Below are positions 8,650-17,078 of a DNA stretch of 50,552 nucleotides, piece by piece. Each line of letters opens with the position of its first letter. Within the stretch, counting starts at the first letter, position 1. The position numbers and the translations under genes were made by a program. Source of the stretch: Gallionellaceae bacterium (GTDB lineage: Bacteria > Pseudomonadota > Gammaproteobacteria > Burkholderiales > Gallionellaceae). The stretch lies in NCBI GenBank assembly GCA_041490205.1, contig JBGPSQ010000001.1, positions 1 through 50,552 of the forward strand, read 5' to 3'. The notes under the pieces were generated by a model. The model saw nothing but the letters and a program-made list of their open reading frames with translations. It had not been told where the DNA came from and made no database searches.

Positions 8650-9504
<855 letters not shown>

Positions 9505-9695
9505 GGTGGCTGCCTTCTTCAAAAATGTCCGAGGTAATTTTAGCACTCTGTCGGTTTGAGTGCTAGAACGGGGAAAGGTTGCCTGGGGTAATGCATTGTA
9601 AGTTCGCCCATATTAGCCTGGGTGGATATAAAACCATTTATATACATATGGTTGCTATTTCGTGCTTCCGGCAGGTTCATCTGGCCGGACAGTGG

Positions 9696-12312: not shown

Positions 12313-12338
12313 AGGCCCGCAAGATGCGGGCCTTTTTT
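12313..12338 (+). terminator. Rho-independent terminator after the MFS gene
   Basis: AGGCCCGC (12313-12320) pairs with GCGGGCCT (12326-12333) around a 5-nt loop, followed by a run of T. Confidence 0.7.
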
Positions 12339-12516
12339 CGCGTGAATGCCATCCCGGTCACAAGCTCACTCAGGTTGCTTGCTGGTCAGGTTTGAGGAAA
12401 AGCCCGGGGTAAGCCGACAAGTCCATGTGTCGTTATTGCCGAACGCCACGTTCGAAAGCGGTAGCTGCAACGATGAAGCAAGCCGCTTTCGCGGCGTGGC
12501 GATTTGTGACAATCTA

Positions 12517-12747
12517 TTACAAGCTTACCCGGCTTGCTTCCGGATCAACTTTGCGCACCATTTCCAGCAACTGCATGCCTCGTATCTTATCCGGATCGTA
12601 TTTCACCAGCAACGCATGGGGATGCGGGCGGCGGGCGAATTCAGCGCAATCCACGCCTATGCGTCCCGAGATGCTGCGTTCCAGGCCGGTTCGTGCATCG
12701 TCATCCAGATCCGGATGCACATGGATCAACATATCTGCTGTGTTCAT
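12517..12747 (-). CDS. Small hypothetical protein (76 aa)
   Basis: ORF from the internal ATG (MNTADMLIHVHPDLDDDARTGLERSISGRIGVDCAEF..HALLVKYDPDKIRGMQLLEMVRKV). The alternating pattern suggests a small alpha/beta (ferredoxin-like) domain. I recognise no motif, so coding status is uncertain. Confidence 0.4.
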   Translation of the reverse strand: MNTADMLIHVHPDLDDDARTGLERSISGRIGVDCAEFARRPHPHALLVKYDPDKIRGMQLLEMVRKVDPEASRVSL

Positions 12748-13086
12748 GATATGCACCTCACTATGAGTAAAAGCCCAATGCCGGGAAAAAGAAACACATG
12801 CCACCCAACATAGACTGCCTTATGGTAATTCTCGGGATTTTCAGAAGTTCTTTCTGTTCGCCAGTGCACGGAATTTCGCGCAGGCAATAAGGCTTGAAAT
12901 TGATCGATGGGGTATGGACTGCTGTAGGGTATGTGAGCCATTGCTTATATTCCAGGCGAATACAATTTATTTAATTCCACGACACCAACAATGCTGTAAA
13001 GGTGCTATTCTGGCAAATGGCATAAAGGGCCAAGGGTGGCGGCTGTCCGGATTGGGCGCCGTCAGCGTGCTCAGGAAGGGGGAGCT

Positions 13087-14058
13087 GTGGAGTTGTTGCG
13101 GCAGAACCTTGTGGTGGAATCGGATTTGCAAGGCTTTTCCGGCTTTGTACTGGAGGCGGTCGCCCGGCTGAAGGGCAGCGCGTTCGCCGCCACTCCTGCA
13201 TTGCTGGAGCTGATGCAAAAACTGCGTTCCGCGGGTGCGGCATCGGGCTTCCCCCTGCCAGTCATTCTGTCGCTCGACAGAAGCCGGCTACTGGTCAGTT
13301 GGAGTAGCCAAACCACGCTGGTGGCGGATGTTGTGCACCAGCCCTCGCCAGACGACACGACAGCCCTGCAGCGCTATTTGCAAGACTCGACCTTGGCGAT
13401 CGATCCCGAAGTACTGTTGCAACGCAATGCCGAAATGATGCGTCACTTCGAGCAGGCGCGCACGCGCAGCGAACACGAACTTGCCGCCTTGCATCAGGCA
13501 TTGGAAAGGGGGCGGGCTGAACTGGAAAAAATGTCGCACCAGGCCGAGACCGACCCGCTGACCGGACTGTACAACCGGCGCGCTTTCGATGTCAGGCTGG
13601 AGCAGATGTTCCGTCATGCCATGCGGCAGAAAAGCGCCCCGCTCTCACTGCTGATGCTGGACCTGGACTACTTCAAACAGGTGAACGACGAATTCGGCCA
13701 CCAGTACGGCGACGCGTACCTCAACAAGATGGCTCAGGTGATGCGCGGCATCATCCGCGAGGACGTGGATTTTGCCTTCCGTTTCGGCGGCGATGAATTC
13801 GCCATGGTTTTGTTTGCCGACCACAAACAGGCGAGCGAAAAAGCCGAACAGATGTTGAAGCTGATGGATCGCAAGGTCAGCATCGGCATTACCACCATCA
13901 ACGCCGACACGCCCGACGGATTTGCGCTGGAAGAGTTTTTCCGCCATGCCGACCATGCCCTGTACGAAGCCAAGCATCGCGGGCGGGGGCGCGTCATTGT
14001 GGAGTTGCATCCCGGGAAAGCCGGCAATGTGAAAAGGAAACAGCCGCTCTTCCTATGA
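13087..14058 (+). CDS. Diguanylate cyclase (GGDEF) with an uncharacterised N-terminal domain of about 150 aa and a coiled-coil linker
   Basis: ..DPLTGLYNRRAF..LLMLDLDYFKQVNDEFGHQYGD..FRFGGDEFAMV..ADHALYEAKHRGRGRV gives an intact GGDEF active site. The start is taken at GTG 13087, preceded by GGAAGGGGGAG. The track ORF begins at 13036. Confidence 0.85.
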   Translation: MELLRQNLVVESDLQGFSGFVLEAVARLKGSAFAATPALLELMQKLRSAGAASGFPLPVILSLDRSRLLVSWSSQTTLVADVVHQPSPDDTTALQRYLQDSTLAIDPEVLLQRNAEMMRHFEQARTRSEHELAALHQALERGRAELEKMSHQAETDPLTGLYNRRAFDVRLEQMFRHAMRQKSAPLSLLMLDLDYFKQVNDEFGHQYGDAYLNKMAQVMRGIIREDVDFAFRFGGDEFAMVLFADHKQASEKAEQMLKLMDRKVSIGITTINADTPDGFALEEFFRHADHALYEAKHRGRGRVIVELHPGKAGNVKRKQPLFL

Positions 14059-15101
14059 TTGCCGCGTTTGATAGTTACAAGGACTGCAGGCTGCTGTTCG
14101 ACAGCGCTGCGCGCAACGAAAGCGCGCTTATCCTGCTGCGCGCGAAACTGTCAGTGATCGCGCAACGCCTGGGCATTTCGGAAATAAAAACCGGGAATAT
14201 GCTGCTGGCCGCCTCCGAACTGGTCAGCAACAACATTAAATACGCCGGGGGGCGCGGCATGATCCAGGTGTGGCAGCAGCCGGGGCCGGTGCTCGATCTG
14301 GTTTCGCTCGATTTCGGGCCGGGCATTCCCGATCTGGGCATGGCCGAGATGGATGGTTACTCCACCGCCAATACGCTGGGCAAGGGCATCGGCAGCGTGC
14401 GCCGCCTGAGCGACGAGCTGCATATTTATACGCAATTGCTCAATCCGGGGCAGCAGAAAAAATGGAGCGGGTCGGTTTTTCTTGCGCGCTTCTTTCCGGA
14501 AGGCGGCAAAAGCAGGGAACAAATGCGCGGGTTCAGGATAGGTCTGTATTCGCGCGCGATGTCCGATTCGCGCTACAACGGCGACCGCATCTATTTGCGC
14601 CAGGATGGCAGGAAACTGCGCTGGCTGCACCTGGATGGCTTGGGGCATGGCGAGCTTGCACAGGAGGCGACAGATAGCCTAGCCACACAATTGGGGCACG
14701 GTAATGATCCTGTTGCGATACTGGAGGCGGTGGATTACCAGCTGCAAGGGTCGCGCGGCGCGGTTGCCGTATCCGGGGAAATAGACCTGGGGCAGCAGGC
14801 CATGCAAATTGCCGGGGTGGGGGACATGCATGCCCATATCTGCGGAAAGAACCAGGTTGAGGGTGTACCCTTCGCGCCCGGCGTACTGGGGCGCGAACAC
14901 CGCACGCTGTCCTTGCTCCAGTCCGGGTTCGGCAAGCACGAGTTGGTCATCACCGCCAGCGACGGCATACGCCGCAACTGGGACAGCAGCACATTCACGG
15001 GGCTTTTCAGCAAGCACCCGCAGTTGATTGCCTACACGATGGGGAATATCATGGGCAGGGTGTCGGACGACCAATCGCTTTGCGCCCTGGCGGCGGCATA
15101 A
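14055..15101 (+). CDS. Fusion protein: RsbT/RsbW-like GHKL serine kinase (N-terminal) plus PP2C/SpoIIE-type phosphatase (C-terminal)
   Basis: The N-terminal half has GHKL boxes ELVSNNIKYA (N box), DFGPGI (G1) and GKGIGSVRRL (G2). The C-terminal half has PP2C-like acidic motifs (NGDRIY, LDGLGHG, ITASDGI). The ATG overlaps the GGDEF stop (ATGA). Confidence 0.8.
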   Translation: MIAAFDSYKDCRLLFDSAARNESALILLRAKLSVIAQRLGISEIKTGNMLLAASELVSNNIKYAGGRGMIQVWQQPGPVLDLVSLDFGPGIPDLGMAEMDGYSTANTLGKGIGSVRRLSDELHIYTQLLNPGQQKKWSGSVFLARFFPEGGKSREQMRGFRIGLYSRAMSDSRYNGDRIYLRQDGRKLRWLHLDGLGHGELAQEATDSLATQLGHGNDPVAILEAVDYQLQGSRGAVAVSGEIDLGQQAMQIAGVGDMHAHICGKNQVEGVPFAPGVLGREHRTLSLLQSGFGKHELVITASDGIRRNWDSSTFTGLFSKHPQLIAYTMGNIMGRVSDDQSLCALAAA

Positions 15102-15143
15102 GCAGCACAAGTTTAATAAACAGGGAAATTTAAAGGGGAAACC

Positions 15144-16013
15144 ATGGTGCAGAAAAAAGCGGGAAGCGAAAAACTGACGGCGCTGTTCAACCTGAAAATC
15201 GGTGACATCATCGATGCGCTGGCGGGGCCAGGCAGGAAATTTTTCGGCGGCGACAACCGCATCATGGACGACGACGAAATCAGCGACGCCAGCGGCGATT
15301 TCAAAAACCTCCTGATGGCGCTGCTGGGCTCCAAGGATCCGGTGGACAAGGGGTCCCCTCAATTCCAGGCACTGGCCATGTTTTTTTCCGGGCTGGCGCA
15401 TCGAGTGCTGGTGCGCGGCGGGCATGTGGAAGACGTGGTGCGCTACGCCCAACAACTGCAACAAACTCTGATCGAGGCGCTGGAGCAAGACAGCGGCATC
15501 GAATTCACACAGTCGCGCAGCACCCTGCTGTATTTCAACGGCGTGTTCAACGAACTGATCATGGCCGCGTTCCGCGTGTATCTCGAAGAAAAGGAAAACG
15601 CATTGTTTGCCCAGGAACAGGCGCTGCGTGAAACCTCCACTCCCATCACCGAAATCTGGGACGGCGTACTCACGCTGCCCATCATAGGCGCGCTCGACTC
15701 CAGCCGCACCATGATGGTGATGGAAGCCCTGCTTGGCCGCATTGCCAAGGATCACGCCCGCGCCGTGGTGATGGACCTCACCGGCGTGAAAAACATAGAC
15801 TCCCAAGTGTCGCACCACCTCATCCAGATGGTGCGCGCCATTCAGTTGATGGGCTCCGAGGCGATCATCACCGGCATCCGCCCCGAAATCGCGCGCGCCC
15901 TGATCAGCCTTAACATCGACATGAGGGATGTCACCACCCGCGCCAGCCTCTCCGACGGCCTGAAGGAAGCCTTCCGCCGCATGGGCATCCAGGTCAGCCA
16001 GAGAAACGAATAG
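15144..16013 (+). CDS. RsbR-like stressosome sensor (N-terminal helical sensor domain plus C-terminal STAS)
   Basis: The C-terminal STAS block is ..ITEIWDGVLTLPIIGALDSSRTMMVMEALLGRIAKDHARAVVMDLTGVKNIDSQV..ITGIRPEIARALISLNID.. The N-terminal helical domain of about 170 aa resembles non-haem globin-type RsbR sensors. Confidence 0.8.
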   Translation: MVQKKAGSEKLTALFNLKIGDIIDALAGPGRKFFGGDNRIMDDDEISDASGDFKNLLMALLGSKDPVDKGSPQFQALAMFFSGLAHRVLVRGGHVEDVVRYAQQLQQTLIEALEQDSGIEFTQSRSTLLYFNGVFNELIMAAFRVYLEEKENALFAQEQALRETSTPITEIWDGVLTLPIIGALDSSRTMMVMEALLGRIAKDHARAVVMDLTGVKNIDSQVSHHLIQMVRAIQLMGSEAIITGIRPEIARALISLNIDMRDVTTRASLSDGLKEAFRRMGIQVSQRNE

Positions 16014-16025
16014 GCGCGGTTCCCA

Positions 16026-16385
16026 GTGTCCCTGCAAGGCATCCACCTCACGCGGATCGGCGAAACCGACTTTCTGCTGGAGCCGTTGCGCAGCCTGAAC
16101 ATCAGCGACAGCGCCAGGCTGGTTGAGGGCATCGTCGAGCGGCTGTTGCAGGCGGGCGCCGCAAGGCTTTATTACGACCTGTCCACCCAGGCCATCATAG
16201 ACCCGGTGTATTACAAATGGCTCAACCAGCTGGCGCGCACAGTGGCGGCGGTCAATGTCAAAATGGTTTGCGTCCACATGCAGCCCACTGCCGCATACTC
16301 GCTGGTGCAATTCGAGCGCGAGGCGCCAGTATTTGAGACAGCTCTCGATATTTCGGTTTGGAAGGATGCGTCGCGAGGCAGGTGA
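16026..16385 (+). CDS. RsbS-like single-domain STAS protein
   Basis: 119 aa with a GTG start. The STAS-like pattern (..ARLYYDLSTQAIIDPVYYKWLNQLARTVAAVNVKMVCVHMQPTAAYSLV..) lies directly after the RsbR-like gene. Confidence 0.7.
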   Translation: MSLQGIHLTRIGETDFLLEPLRSLNISDSARLVEGIVERLLQAGAARLYYDLSTQAIIDPVYYKWLNQLARTVAAVNVKMVCVHMQPTAAYSLVQFEREAPVFETALDISVWKDASRGR

Positions 16386-16406: not shown

Positions 16407-17057
16407 TTACGCCGCGTACCACAGCACCGCGAAGTAATGGGAAGCGGTCCCCCCCATTACGAACAGGTGCCAGATGAAGTGGCCGTATCTCAGGCGCGAA
16501 TCGGTGGTGAAGAAGATCACGCCTATCGTATAGGAGAGTCCTCCGGCGACCAGCCACATCAGGCCGGACGCCGGTAGCAGGGTATAAAGAGGTTTGGCCG
16601 CGATCACAATGAGCCAGCCCATGAGCAGGTAGAGCAGGGTGAAGGCGATGGGATGGGTTACGCCATCGATTAATTTCAGCAACACTCCTGCCGCGGCCAG
16701 TCCCCAGATCAGACCTAACAGCAACCAGCCCCACCCGCCATGCAATATGCCGAGCGTGAACGGCGTGTAGGTTCCTGCGATCAAGATGAAAATCGCCGAG
16801 TGTTCGATGATGCGGAAAATATGCTTGAGCCTTCCGGGGCGCAGTGCGTGGTACAGCGTCGAGGCCGCATAGAGCAGGATCATCGCGGCGGCGAATACGC
16901 TTGCACCGACGATGAATCCGGCATCTCCAAGCTCCACTGCGCGGACGATGAGAAATGGCGCCCCAACCAGCGCTGCGATCAGGGCTGCACCATGGCTAAG
17001 GCTGTTTGCCAACTCTTCGCCGGAGGACTGTTCGCGTGCGGTCATTGCGGAGGCCAT
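16407..17057 (-). CDS. Hemolysin III / PAQR-family membrane protein
   Basis: Seven-TM protein with PAQR motifs (..NSLSHG.., ..STLYHAL.., ..EHSAIFILIAGTYTPF.., ..HLFVMGGTASHYFAV..). The start is ambiguous: TTG 17078, ATG 17057 or ATG 17045. Confidence 0.8.
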   Translation of the reverse strand: MASAMTAREQSSGEELANSLSHGAALIAALVGAPFLIVRAVELGDAGFIVGASVFAAAMILLYAASTLYHALRPGRLKHIFRIIEHSAIFILIAGTYTPFTLGILHGGWGWLLLGLIWGLAAAGVLLKLIDGVTHPIAFTLLYLLMGWLIVIAAKPLYTLLPASGLMWLVAGGLSYTIGVIFFTTDSRLRYGHFIWHLFVMGGTASHYFAVLWYAA

Positions 17058-17078
17058 TTCAATGATATATCCCGGCAA

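Follow-up and report, generated by a model that had tools for sequence, protein, structure and literature searches.

How can a bacterium run a signalling module with the parts of a stressosome when two of its supposedly central features, a free RsbT kinase and phosphorylation of RsbS, are missing, while the phospho-threonines of RsbR are still invariant? This question is raised by four consecutive genes in a stretch of 50,552 nucleotides from a Gallionellaceae bacterium (contig JBGPSQ010000001.1, positions 1 to 50,552; hereafter, the window), taken from a draft genome that is 92% complete and consists of 306 contigs. The genes encode, in this order, a diguanylate cyclase (gene 1), a fusion of an RsbT-like kinase domain with a PP2C phosphatase domain (gene 2), an RsbR-like protein (gene 3), and an RsbS-like protein (gene 4). 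An original prediction, made from the letters of the DNA, had described them as a proteobacterial stressosome module that is wired to cyclic diguanylate (c-di-GMP). Our analysis points to a self-contained four-gene cassette of stressosome lineage that would control its own dedicated cyclase, where the fusion would act on the RsbR-like protein and the resulting state would be passed on by binding, a reading that we regard as evenly poised between right and wrong.

Both the predicted stressosome descent and the description as a proteobacterial version hold, as an RsbR-type STAS domain, an RsbS-type STAS domain, and an RsbX/MtX-type PP2C domain were all found. The gene structure, read directly from the open reading frames (ORFs) and their junctions, was also correct in every detail, with four same-strand genes within 13087-16385, an ATGA overlap of genes 1 and 2 at 14055-14058, and gaps of 42 and 12 nt between the others. 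As expected from the claim of a sensor domain followed by STAS, gene 3 encodes an RsbR-type protein with its STAS domain at residues 168-258 (Pfam, E 4e-13). Its closest solved relatives are the RsbR proteins of Vibrio vulnificus (7O0I, E 2e-30) and Listeria (E 2e-26), to whose stressosome STAS domains it is 40-45% identical. Two threonines, T213 (in DLTGV) and T243 (in ITGIRPEIA), which are the equivalents of T171 and T205 in Bacillus subtilis RsbRA, are invariant in 23 sequences and are retained in divergent members. For the N-terminal sensor region, a profile search of the Protein Data Bank (PDB) returned merely weak annexin matches, which we took as chance, and an alignment of the 23 sequences displayed an invariant R91-G92-G93 but no invariant histidine, hence no sign of a haem-globin sensor.

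The lone STAS domain that had been predicted for gene 4 was confirmed as a divergent RsbS type. The protein matched RsbS 6JHK at E 0.0025 with phmmer and at E 6e-4 with a profile, and its profile aligned to that of bona fide RsbS proteins from RsbR-RsbS-RsbT loci with a probability of 92% (hhalign, E 6e-7), while searches of Pfam (STAS included) and NCBIfam gave no match. At the position of Ser59 (B. subtilis RsbS numbering) it carries Pro60. Across the cassette family this position is occupied by P, H, S, T, G, Q, D, L, R, or E, with a serine in just 1 of 25 aligned cassette sequences (L054), whereas four canonical RsbS proteins retain the VDSF serine. The motifs YYDL, ID, W65-L66, and MQPTAA, on the other hand, are invariant. 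The original prediction had named a lack of phosphorylatable Ser/Thr in the STAS proteins, together with a failure to co-assemble, as an observation that would speak against it. The lack of such residues applies to the RsbS-like protein, but not to the RsbR-like protein, which keeps both threonines invariantly. Judged by their sequences, the two proteins are a STAS scaffold pair.

Gene 2 encodes the fusion of kinase and phosphatase. The GHKL N, G1, and G2 boxes and the PP2C acidic motifs that had been claimed for it are all invariant in 26 sequences, namely, E55, N59, and K62 of the N box, D86-x-G88-x-G90 of G1, and G109-x-G111-x-G113 of G2, and the metal-binding motifs GD176-177, DGLGHG194-199, SDG302-304, and DD338-339 of the phosphatase. 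The HATPase_c_2 match spans residues 24-124, and the kinase half is 34-40% identical to stand-alone RsbT proteins of RsbR-RsbS-RsbT loci. The phosphatase half, without a Pfam match, was placed by its similarity to MtX of Moorella (3ZT9; E 7e-11 with the single sequence and 2.5e-23 with a profile) and to B. subtilis RsbX (3W40; E 1e-3 and 1.3e-15, respectively). Both activities of the fusion are probably real. A word-indexed search listed 542 relatives of gene 2.

The cassette is distinguished less by this fusion than by the absence of a stand-alone RsbT. No stand-alone RsbT of ~130-140 amino acids was found in the genome of the window (92% complete), where the best RsbT-like match was the N-terminal half of the fusion; all of 10 further cassette genomes, including a complete one, gave the same result, with the fusion itself again as the best match. 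A different arrangement was seen in six weaker relatives of gene 2 within the same order (L039-L044, hereafter tier 2), which align colinearly with it at 28-30% identity over ~320 residues. Here, the genes run from RsbR and RsbS to a stand-alone RsbT of 134 amino acids, a HATPase_c_2 and SpoIIE/PP2C fusion with intact N, G1, and G2 boxes and PP2C motifs, and a histidine kinase. Since a kinase-PP2C fusion stands beside a separate RsbT in these loci, the fusion architecture is not special to the cassette, and its distribution in the sequences marks it as older than, or independent of, the cassette. The original prediction that the T and X activities had been fused was right in that both reside in one polypeptide, but too simple in that a tier-2 fusion coexists with a separate RsbT. 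The layout of the cassette looks more like a loss of RsbT than like a fresh fusion of T and X. An unrooted tree separated the kinase domains cleanly into three clades, formed by RsbT, the tier-2 fusions, and the cassette fusions, and rooting it with a kinase domain from elsewhere in the genome of the window (on contig C53, see below) left the base unresolved with a very long outgroup branch.

Tier-2 loci thus share with the cassette the colinear fusion and the same RsbR and RsbS families, and they differ from it in their separate RsbT, their VDSF serine, the order R-S-T-fusion, and a histidine-kinase output. They also differ within the phosphatase: At residues 254-258 of gene 2 (14814-14828), all cassette fusions read G-V-G-D, where RsbX, MtX, and the tier-2 fusions have the RsbX-type motif G-x-G-N. 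An Asn-to-Asp change in this motif has been discussed as the step that gives PP2Cs a third metal site (PMC4524716). The tier-2 histidine kinases themselves vary. In L039 and L043, a coiled coil with E(L/T)NRGVLALYAELD stands at the very start of the kinase, and the kinase of L041 has an extra N-terminal domain of ~190 amino acids that is degenerate-GHKL-like. Our literature search found no description of a locus type that combines R-S-T, a kinase-PP2C fusion, and a histidine kinase.

Gene 1 encodes the cyclase. Its GGDEF domain, claimed to be intact, is indeed so (PF00990, with a further match to TIGR00254): In an alignment of 27 members of the family, the active-site motif G234-G235-D236-E237-F238 does not vary, nor do D192/D194, K197, N200, and D209 among the residues for GTP and Mg binding, and K296 and R300 are kept in at least 90% of the sequences. 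By its motifs, the enzyme is catalytically intact. The canonical RxxD inhibitory site (I-site), however, is not, as the family alignment reads I-R-E-D-V-D-FAFRF-GGDEF, i.e., RxxxD, with the Asp placed correctly and the Arg at -10 instead of -9 from GGDEF; product inhibition may therefore be absent or altered. The region before the GGDEF domain had been described as ~150 unassigned amino acids and a coiled coil. Such a region exists, but AlphaFold2 resolves it differently, as an alpha/beta domain of ~105 residues (hereafter, the N-domain) and one helix of 48 residues, the stalk. The model of the full-length protein reached a predicted local distance difference test score (pLDDT) of 90, and the N-domain modeled alone a pLDDT of 88 with a predicted TM-score of 0.81. 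Across the whole family, E11 and D13 of the N-domain are invariant and R47 is nearly so. One homologue (L019:2555-3643) carries an insertion of ~30 residues in the loop between b3 and b4, which accordingly tolerates large insertions.

Contrary to the expectation that the N-domain would be the counterpart of RsbU-N, it does not resemble it. Its b-a-a-b-b-b-a topology is not that of a four-helix bundle, a Foldseek search gave no PDB match at E<=0.001 (best TM about 0.2-0.3), and neither PDB sequences nor Pfam contained a match, which together rule out an RsbU-N identity. A different relative emerged for the protein as a whole, whose best Foldseek match was SiaD bound to SiaC (7E6G chain A, E 1e-14, 253 columns). 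This match stems from the stalk and the GGDEF domain; the stalk aligns structurally to that of SiaD and to the coiled coils of DgcB, WspR-GCN4, and PadC. The NCBIfam model for SiaD covers the stalk end and the GGDEF domain with 110 bits, far under its cut-off of 290, and the likeness is thus one of architecture, not orthology.

The gene-order survey that had been suggested as a check gave a clear outcome: All related loci that were examined preserve the order cyclase-fusion-RsbR-RsbS, which is far beyond chance. When the whole genomes of 300 other species from the order of the window were searched, 29 contained a gene 2 relative. Besides the six of tier 2, these comprised 23 close relatives (48-64% identity), all of which have the cyclase, fusion, RsbR-like, and RsbS-like genes in this order where the contig permits. 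Their genomes are spread over ten families besides that of the window; in the family of the window, 0 of 7 other genomes carried the cassette. Among the carriers are relatives named Gallionellaceae and Sulfuricella in the source records. Two reference loci in metagenome-assembled genomes (MAGs) have completely different flanking genes. By these comparisons, the cassette has thus evolved as a tightly linked unit, and its patchy distribution probably arose through horizontal spread.

The N-domain itself is rare. A 400-genome sample of the phylum contained it in 1 other genome, of the same order, and when 1.84 billion representative proteins were searched exhaustively with its profile, 49 clusters only were returned. 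Their members are fragments or proteins of ~300-380 amino acids, bar three long matches in multiple stretches (792-2238 amino acids), and 9 of 9 full-length matches scanned with Pfam have a C-terminal GGDEF domain. The three most divergent metagenome loci (E 1e-5 to 6e-4) display the same four genes among unrelated neighbours, and this type of cassette surrounds each member for which the neighbourhood was inspected. Because the N-domain is tied to the cassette and the four genes travel together while their flanks are unrelated, the predicted c-di-GMP output is very likely.

Two observations on individual loci concern this spread. Directly upstream of the cassette in one related MAG (L001:2649-3761) lies an ORF of 370 amino acids that looks to us like an ISAs1-family transposase, which would fit the patchy distribution. 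A 2188-bp contig labelled as a Geothrix sp. MAG (Acidobacteriota; L004, JAUXSE010000019.1) contains a cassette fragment, cyclase plus fusion, at 55-59% identity, which would reflect either a horizontal transfer out of Proteobacteria or a binning error.

Stressosome modules that are wired to c-di-GMP enzymes are known from Moorella and from Vibrio/Chromobacterium-type loci, and both the wiring to GGDEF proteins and the action of RsbT by binding have published precedent (PMC4976288, PMC9237108, PMC12143880). In Moorella thermoacetica, the stressosome MtR-MtS-MtT-MtX is accompanied by MtG as its cyclase (Quin et al. 2012, recounted in PMC12143880 and PMC4976288), and the four-helix bundle RsbU-N couples RsbT to RsbU and likewise to MtG (PMC12143880). 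The cassette resembles this system in being a stressosome-lineage module with a GGDEF cyclase output in the same gene row, and MtX is the closest solved relative of its phosphatase half. It differs in that MtT is a separate protein while the cassette kinase is found only joined to its phosphatase, in that MtG has RsbU-N and GAF domains where the cassette cyclase has its alpha/beta N-domain, in its reversed gene order with the output first, and in an RsbS-like protein that lacks the phospho-serine. With the canonical stressosomes of B. subtilis, L. monocytogenes, and V. vulnificus, it shares an RsbR STAS domain in which both phospho-threonines and the linker TPITEIWDGVLTLPIIG are conserved, an RsbS-type single STAS protein, an RsbT-like GHKL domain, and an RsbX-type PP2C. 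It departs from them in having no stand-alone RsbT, in a Ser59 position that is replaced and unconstrained, in an RsbX-type PP2C that occurs solely as a fused domain (RsbX of the surveyed modules is called single-domain; PMC9237108), and in the lack of RsbU-N on its neighbours and of a sigma-factor or two-component output. Canonical RsbR and RsbS assemble into a pseudo-icosahedral particle of ~1.5-1.8 MDa that sequesters the kinase.

A second relevant system is SiaABCD of Pseudomonas aeruginosa, a single operon in which a long-stalk cyclase is switched on by a binding partner whose phosphorylation state is set by a Ser/Thr kinase and a PP2C (PMC8457831, PMC7647112). SiaD is one of several cyclases regulated through their stalk, next to DgcB and PadC (PMC8457831, PMC12143880). 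Unlike in the cassette, the phosphatase SiaA and the kinase SiaB are separate proteins, the partner SiaC belongs to DUF1987, to which the RsbR/RsbS-type STAS proteins of the cassette have no match, and SiaD is without an N-terminal alpha/beta domain. Kinase and phosphatase do reside in one polypeptide in the multidomain proteins Rv1364c of Mycobacterium tuberculosis and OsaC of Streptomyces, which combine an RsbW/RsbT-type kinase with a PP2C and act on STAS partners. Such proteins have another domain order and extra PAS/GAF/STAS or cyclic-nucleotide-binding domains, and they control sigma factors; to our knowledge, they have no link with either RsbR/RsbS or a cyclase. Rv1364c (3KE6) was a weak match of the PP2C half of gene 2. 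OsaC is also cited in PMC12143880, and the genome of the window itself contains a further protein of this kind on contig C53 (see below).

How might the four proteins work together? We propose that the kinase half of the fusion would phosphorylate T213 and T243 of the RsbR-like protein and that the tethered phosphatase half would remove the phosphate again; RsbR phosphorylation would be a continuously reset read-out of the signal that is perceived by the RsbR sensor domain. Phosphorylation of RsbS, which is the release trigger in Bacillus, would lie outside the conserved mechanism. The state would then be handed to the cyclase by protein-protein binding at the N-domain and stalk, not by phosphorylation, and partner binding would shift the register of the dimeric stalk and thereby alter the GGDEF activity. 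As to the partner, we lean tentatively, and with some doubt, to the kinase half, which might partition between the STAS scaffold and the cyclase after the example of RsbT-RsbU and MtT-MtG. The grounds for this are the analogy itself and the constant adjacency of the cyclase and fusion genes. Docking of a STAS protein in the style of SiaC and SiaD is nearly as likely. Several points weigh against the scheme. Among PDB sequences, Pfam, and Foldseek matches, the N-domain resembles neither RsbU-N nor any known docking domain, so that the hand-over to the cyclase is drawn purely by analogy. The kinase half stands barely at the Pfam cut-off (27.3 versus 27.4 bits) and has no close relative among solved structures. 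Moreover, the tethered phosphatase could make the net phosphorylation of RsbR negligible.

The most serious competitor, which we nonetheless consider rather unlikely, is that the cassette works like SiaABCD, with a STAS protein as the activator of the cyclase and a fusion that merely sets the phosphorylation of RsbR and never touches the cyclase. Unphosphorylated RsbR STAS, or the RsbS-like protein as an adaptor, would bind the stalk or N-domain and stabilise the active dimer. The best structural match of the cyclase, a complex that holds a small partner-switch protein on the stalk (PMC8457831), speaks for this, as does the same set of four activities (cyclase, kinase, PP2C, and phosphorylatable partner). 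So do the conservation of the RsbR STAS domain, which exceeds the needs of a scaffold with long invariant runs that reach the C-terminal helix, and the loss of the RsbS phospho-site, which removes the canonical trigger of kinase release. The N-domain and the RsbS-like protein, both private to the cassette and without a database family, would be possible co-evolved partners. However, neither STAS protein resembles SiaC/DUF1987 in sequence by Pfam, PDB-relative, and profile searches, the messenger is the kinase and not a STAS protein in all stressosome-lineage systems that have been studied (PMC12143880, PMC9237108), and the cyclase gene always adjoins the fusion gene and not the STAS genes. A related alternative, unlikely in our estimate and a little more so, follows from the tethering of kinase and phosphatase and from an RsbS that is not phosphorylatable. 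Here, the fusion would stay on the scaffold as a rheostat of RsbR phosphorylation, and the scaffold would clamp the cyclase via its N-domain in a closed loop without any release of the kinase, the contact perhaps running through the cassette-specific RsbS-like subunit and E11-x-D13 and R47 of the N-domain. If true, this would mean a new output logic for stressosomes and a new family of GGDEF regulatory domains.

It is improbable, in our view, that the kinase half phosphorylates the cyclase itself, with the PP2C half reversing the modification and RsbR and RsbS tuning the balance. One paper does summarise the Moorella RsbT homologue as phosphorylating its downstream cyclase (PMC4976288), a writer-eraser fusion encoded beside its substrate would be economical, and Ser101-Thr102, at the lower-confidence hinge between N-domain and stalk, is invariant among close relatives. 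Yet, once divergent family members were included in the alignment, no Ser or Thr of the N-domain or stalk remained conserved, and as these two are among those lost, we ruled them out as a conserved phospho-acceptor of the cyclase. Both RsbR threonines, by contrast, are kept without exception, which indicates that the conserved substrate is RsbR. Least probable by far is that the cyclase is only a conserved neighbour, with genes 2 to 4 serving a target elsewhere, such as a different c-di-GMP enzyme, a two-component system, or a second set of partner-switching genes of this genome. Many stressosome-type loci do have non-obvious outputs (PMC9237108), and such a second set, composed of two STAS proteins and a kinase/cyclic-nucleotide/PP2C protein, does exist. 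Against this stand the confinement of the N-domain to this cyclase type and of all its examined neighbourhoods to the cassette, the joint movement of the four genes among unrelated flanks, the ATGA overlap that couples genes 1 and 2 here, and the absence of any other candidate output conserved nearby.

Part of this is already known, namely, the wiring of stressosomes to c-di-GMP and the control of a stalked cyclase by kinase, PP2C, and partner, as in SiaABCD. Our literature search found no account of the RsbT-less layout, of a fusion as the only kinase, of a serine-less RsbS, or of the cyclase N-domain, although a mention in the Pane-Farre reviews of 2005 and 2017 is possible. How stressosomes outside Bacillus and Listeria sense and hand on their signals is largely open (PMC9237108, PMC11821858). 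The cassette is a minimal version provided by nature; its four proteins are small and soluble, and its enzymatic output, c-di-GMP, is easily measured. Since it combines the two missing features with invariant RsbR threonines, it can be used to test cleanly which steps the stressosome model really needs, and also to examine the behaviour of a writer and an eraser that are tethered to each other. The N-domain is, in addition, a rare addition to the known GGDEF input domains. The coordinates of all features are listed in Table 1.

Table 1. Genes and domains of the four-gene cassette, with positions in the window.
Feature	Coordinates	Strand	Basis
Gene 1, diguanylate cyclase, 323 aa	13087..14058	+	ORF, GTG start
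Cyclase N-terminal alpha/beta domain, residues 1-105, b1-a1-a2-b2-b3-b4-a3	13087..13401	+	AlphaFold2
Cyclase signalling helix/stalk, residues 107-154, into D-x-L-T motif before GGDEF	13405..13548	+	AlphaFold2 model
GGDEF catalytic domain, residues 153-301	13543..13989	+	Pfam PF00990 E 9e-38, TIGR00254
Gene 2, kinase-phosphatase fusion, 348 aa	14055..15101	+	ORF
GHKL (HATPase_c_2) serine-kinase-type domain, RsbT-like, residues ~1-135	14055..14459	+	PF13581 E 4e-6
RsbX/MtX-type PP2C phosphatase domain, residues 159-348	14529..15098	+	MtX/RsbX matches
Gene 3, RsbR-like sensor + STAS protein, 289 aa	15144..16013	+	ORF
RsbR-like N-terminal sensor region, residues 1-150	15144..15593	+	no Pfam match
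Gene 4, divergent RsbS-like single STAS protein, 119 aa	16026..16385	+	ORF

The second partner-switching set lies at ~6880-9440 on contig C53 of the same genome (L005:667-3201). Two small STAS genes (117 and 114 amino acids) are followed there by a protein of 585 amino acids with HATPase_c_2, cyclic-nucleotide-binding, and strong SpoIIE/PP2C matches, which by its domains is another kinase-phosphatase fusion, with a cyclic-nucleotide input.

Within the cassette, the GTG start of gene 1 is preceded by the Shine-Dalgarno-like GGAAGGGGGAG and agrees with the N-termini of homologues; a longer version from a GTG at 13036 is possible. The Shine-Dalgarno sequence of gene 3 is AAGGGGA. The upstream side is marked by an unusually long, non-coding-looking gap of ~750 bp (12340-13086), which contains a minus-strand ORF of 95 amino acids (12517-12804) without a Pfam match. 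A scan for promoters and terminators gave a number of sites not above that in shuffled sequences, the sole convincing site being a strong terminator (12313-12333) at the end of the upstream major facilitator superfamily (MFS) transporter gene. No known regulatory RNA was found in the gap with Rfam, apart from one sub-threshold Trp-leader match that overlaps this terminator. The prediction that no sigma factor is adjacent is true in effect. An RpoH-type sigma factor is encoded at 8650-9546 on the minus strand, with QRKLFFNLR as what we presume to be its RpoH box, 3.5 kb upstream of the cassette and separated from it by the genes for a Crp/Fnr-family regulator and the MFS transporter and by the terminator. 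As other genomes show no synteny between rpoH and the cassette, its proximity looks incidental. On the downstream side, the cassette is bordered by a convergent HlyIII-family gene (16407-17078, minus strand).

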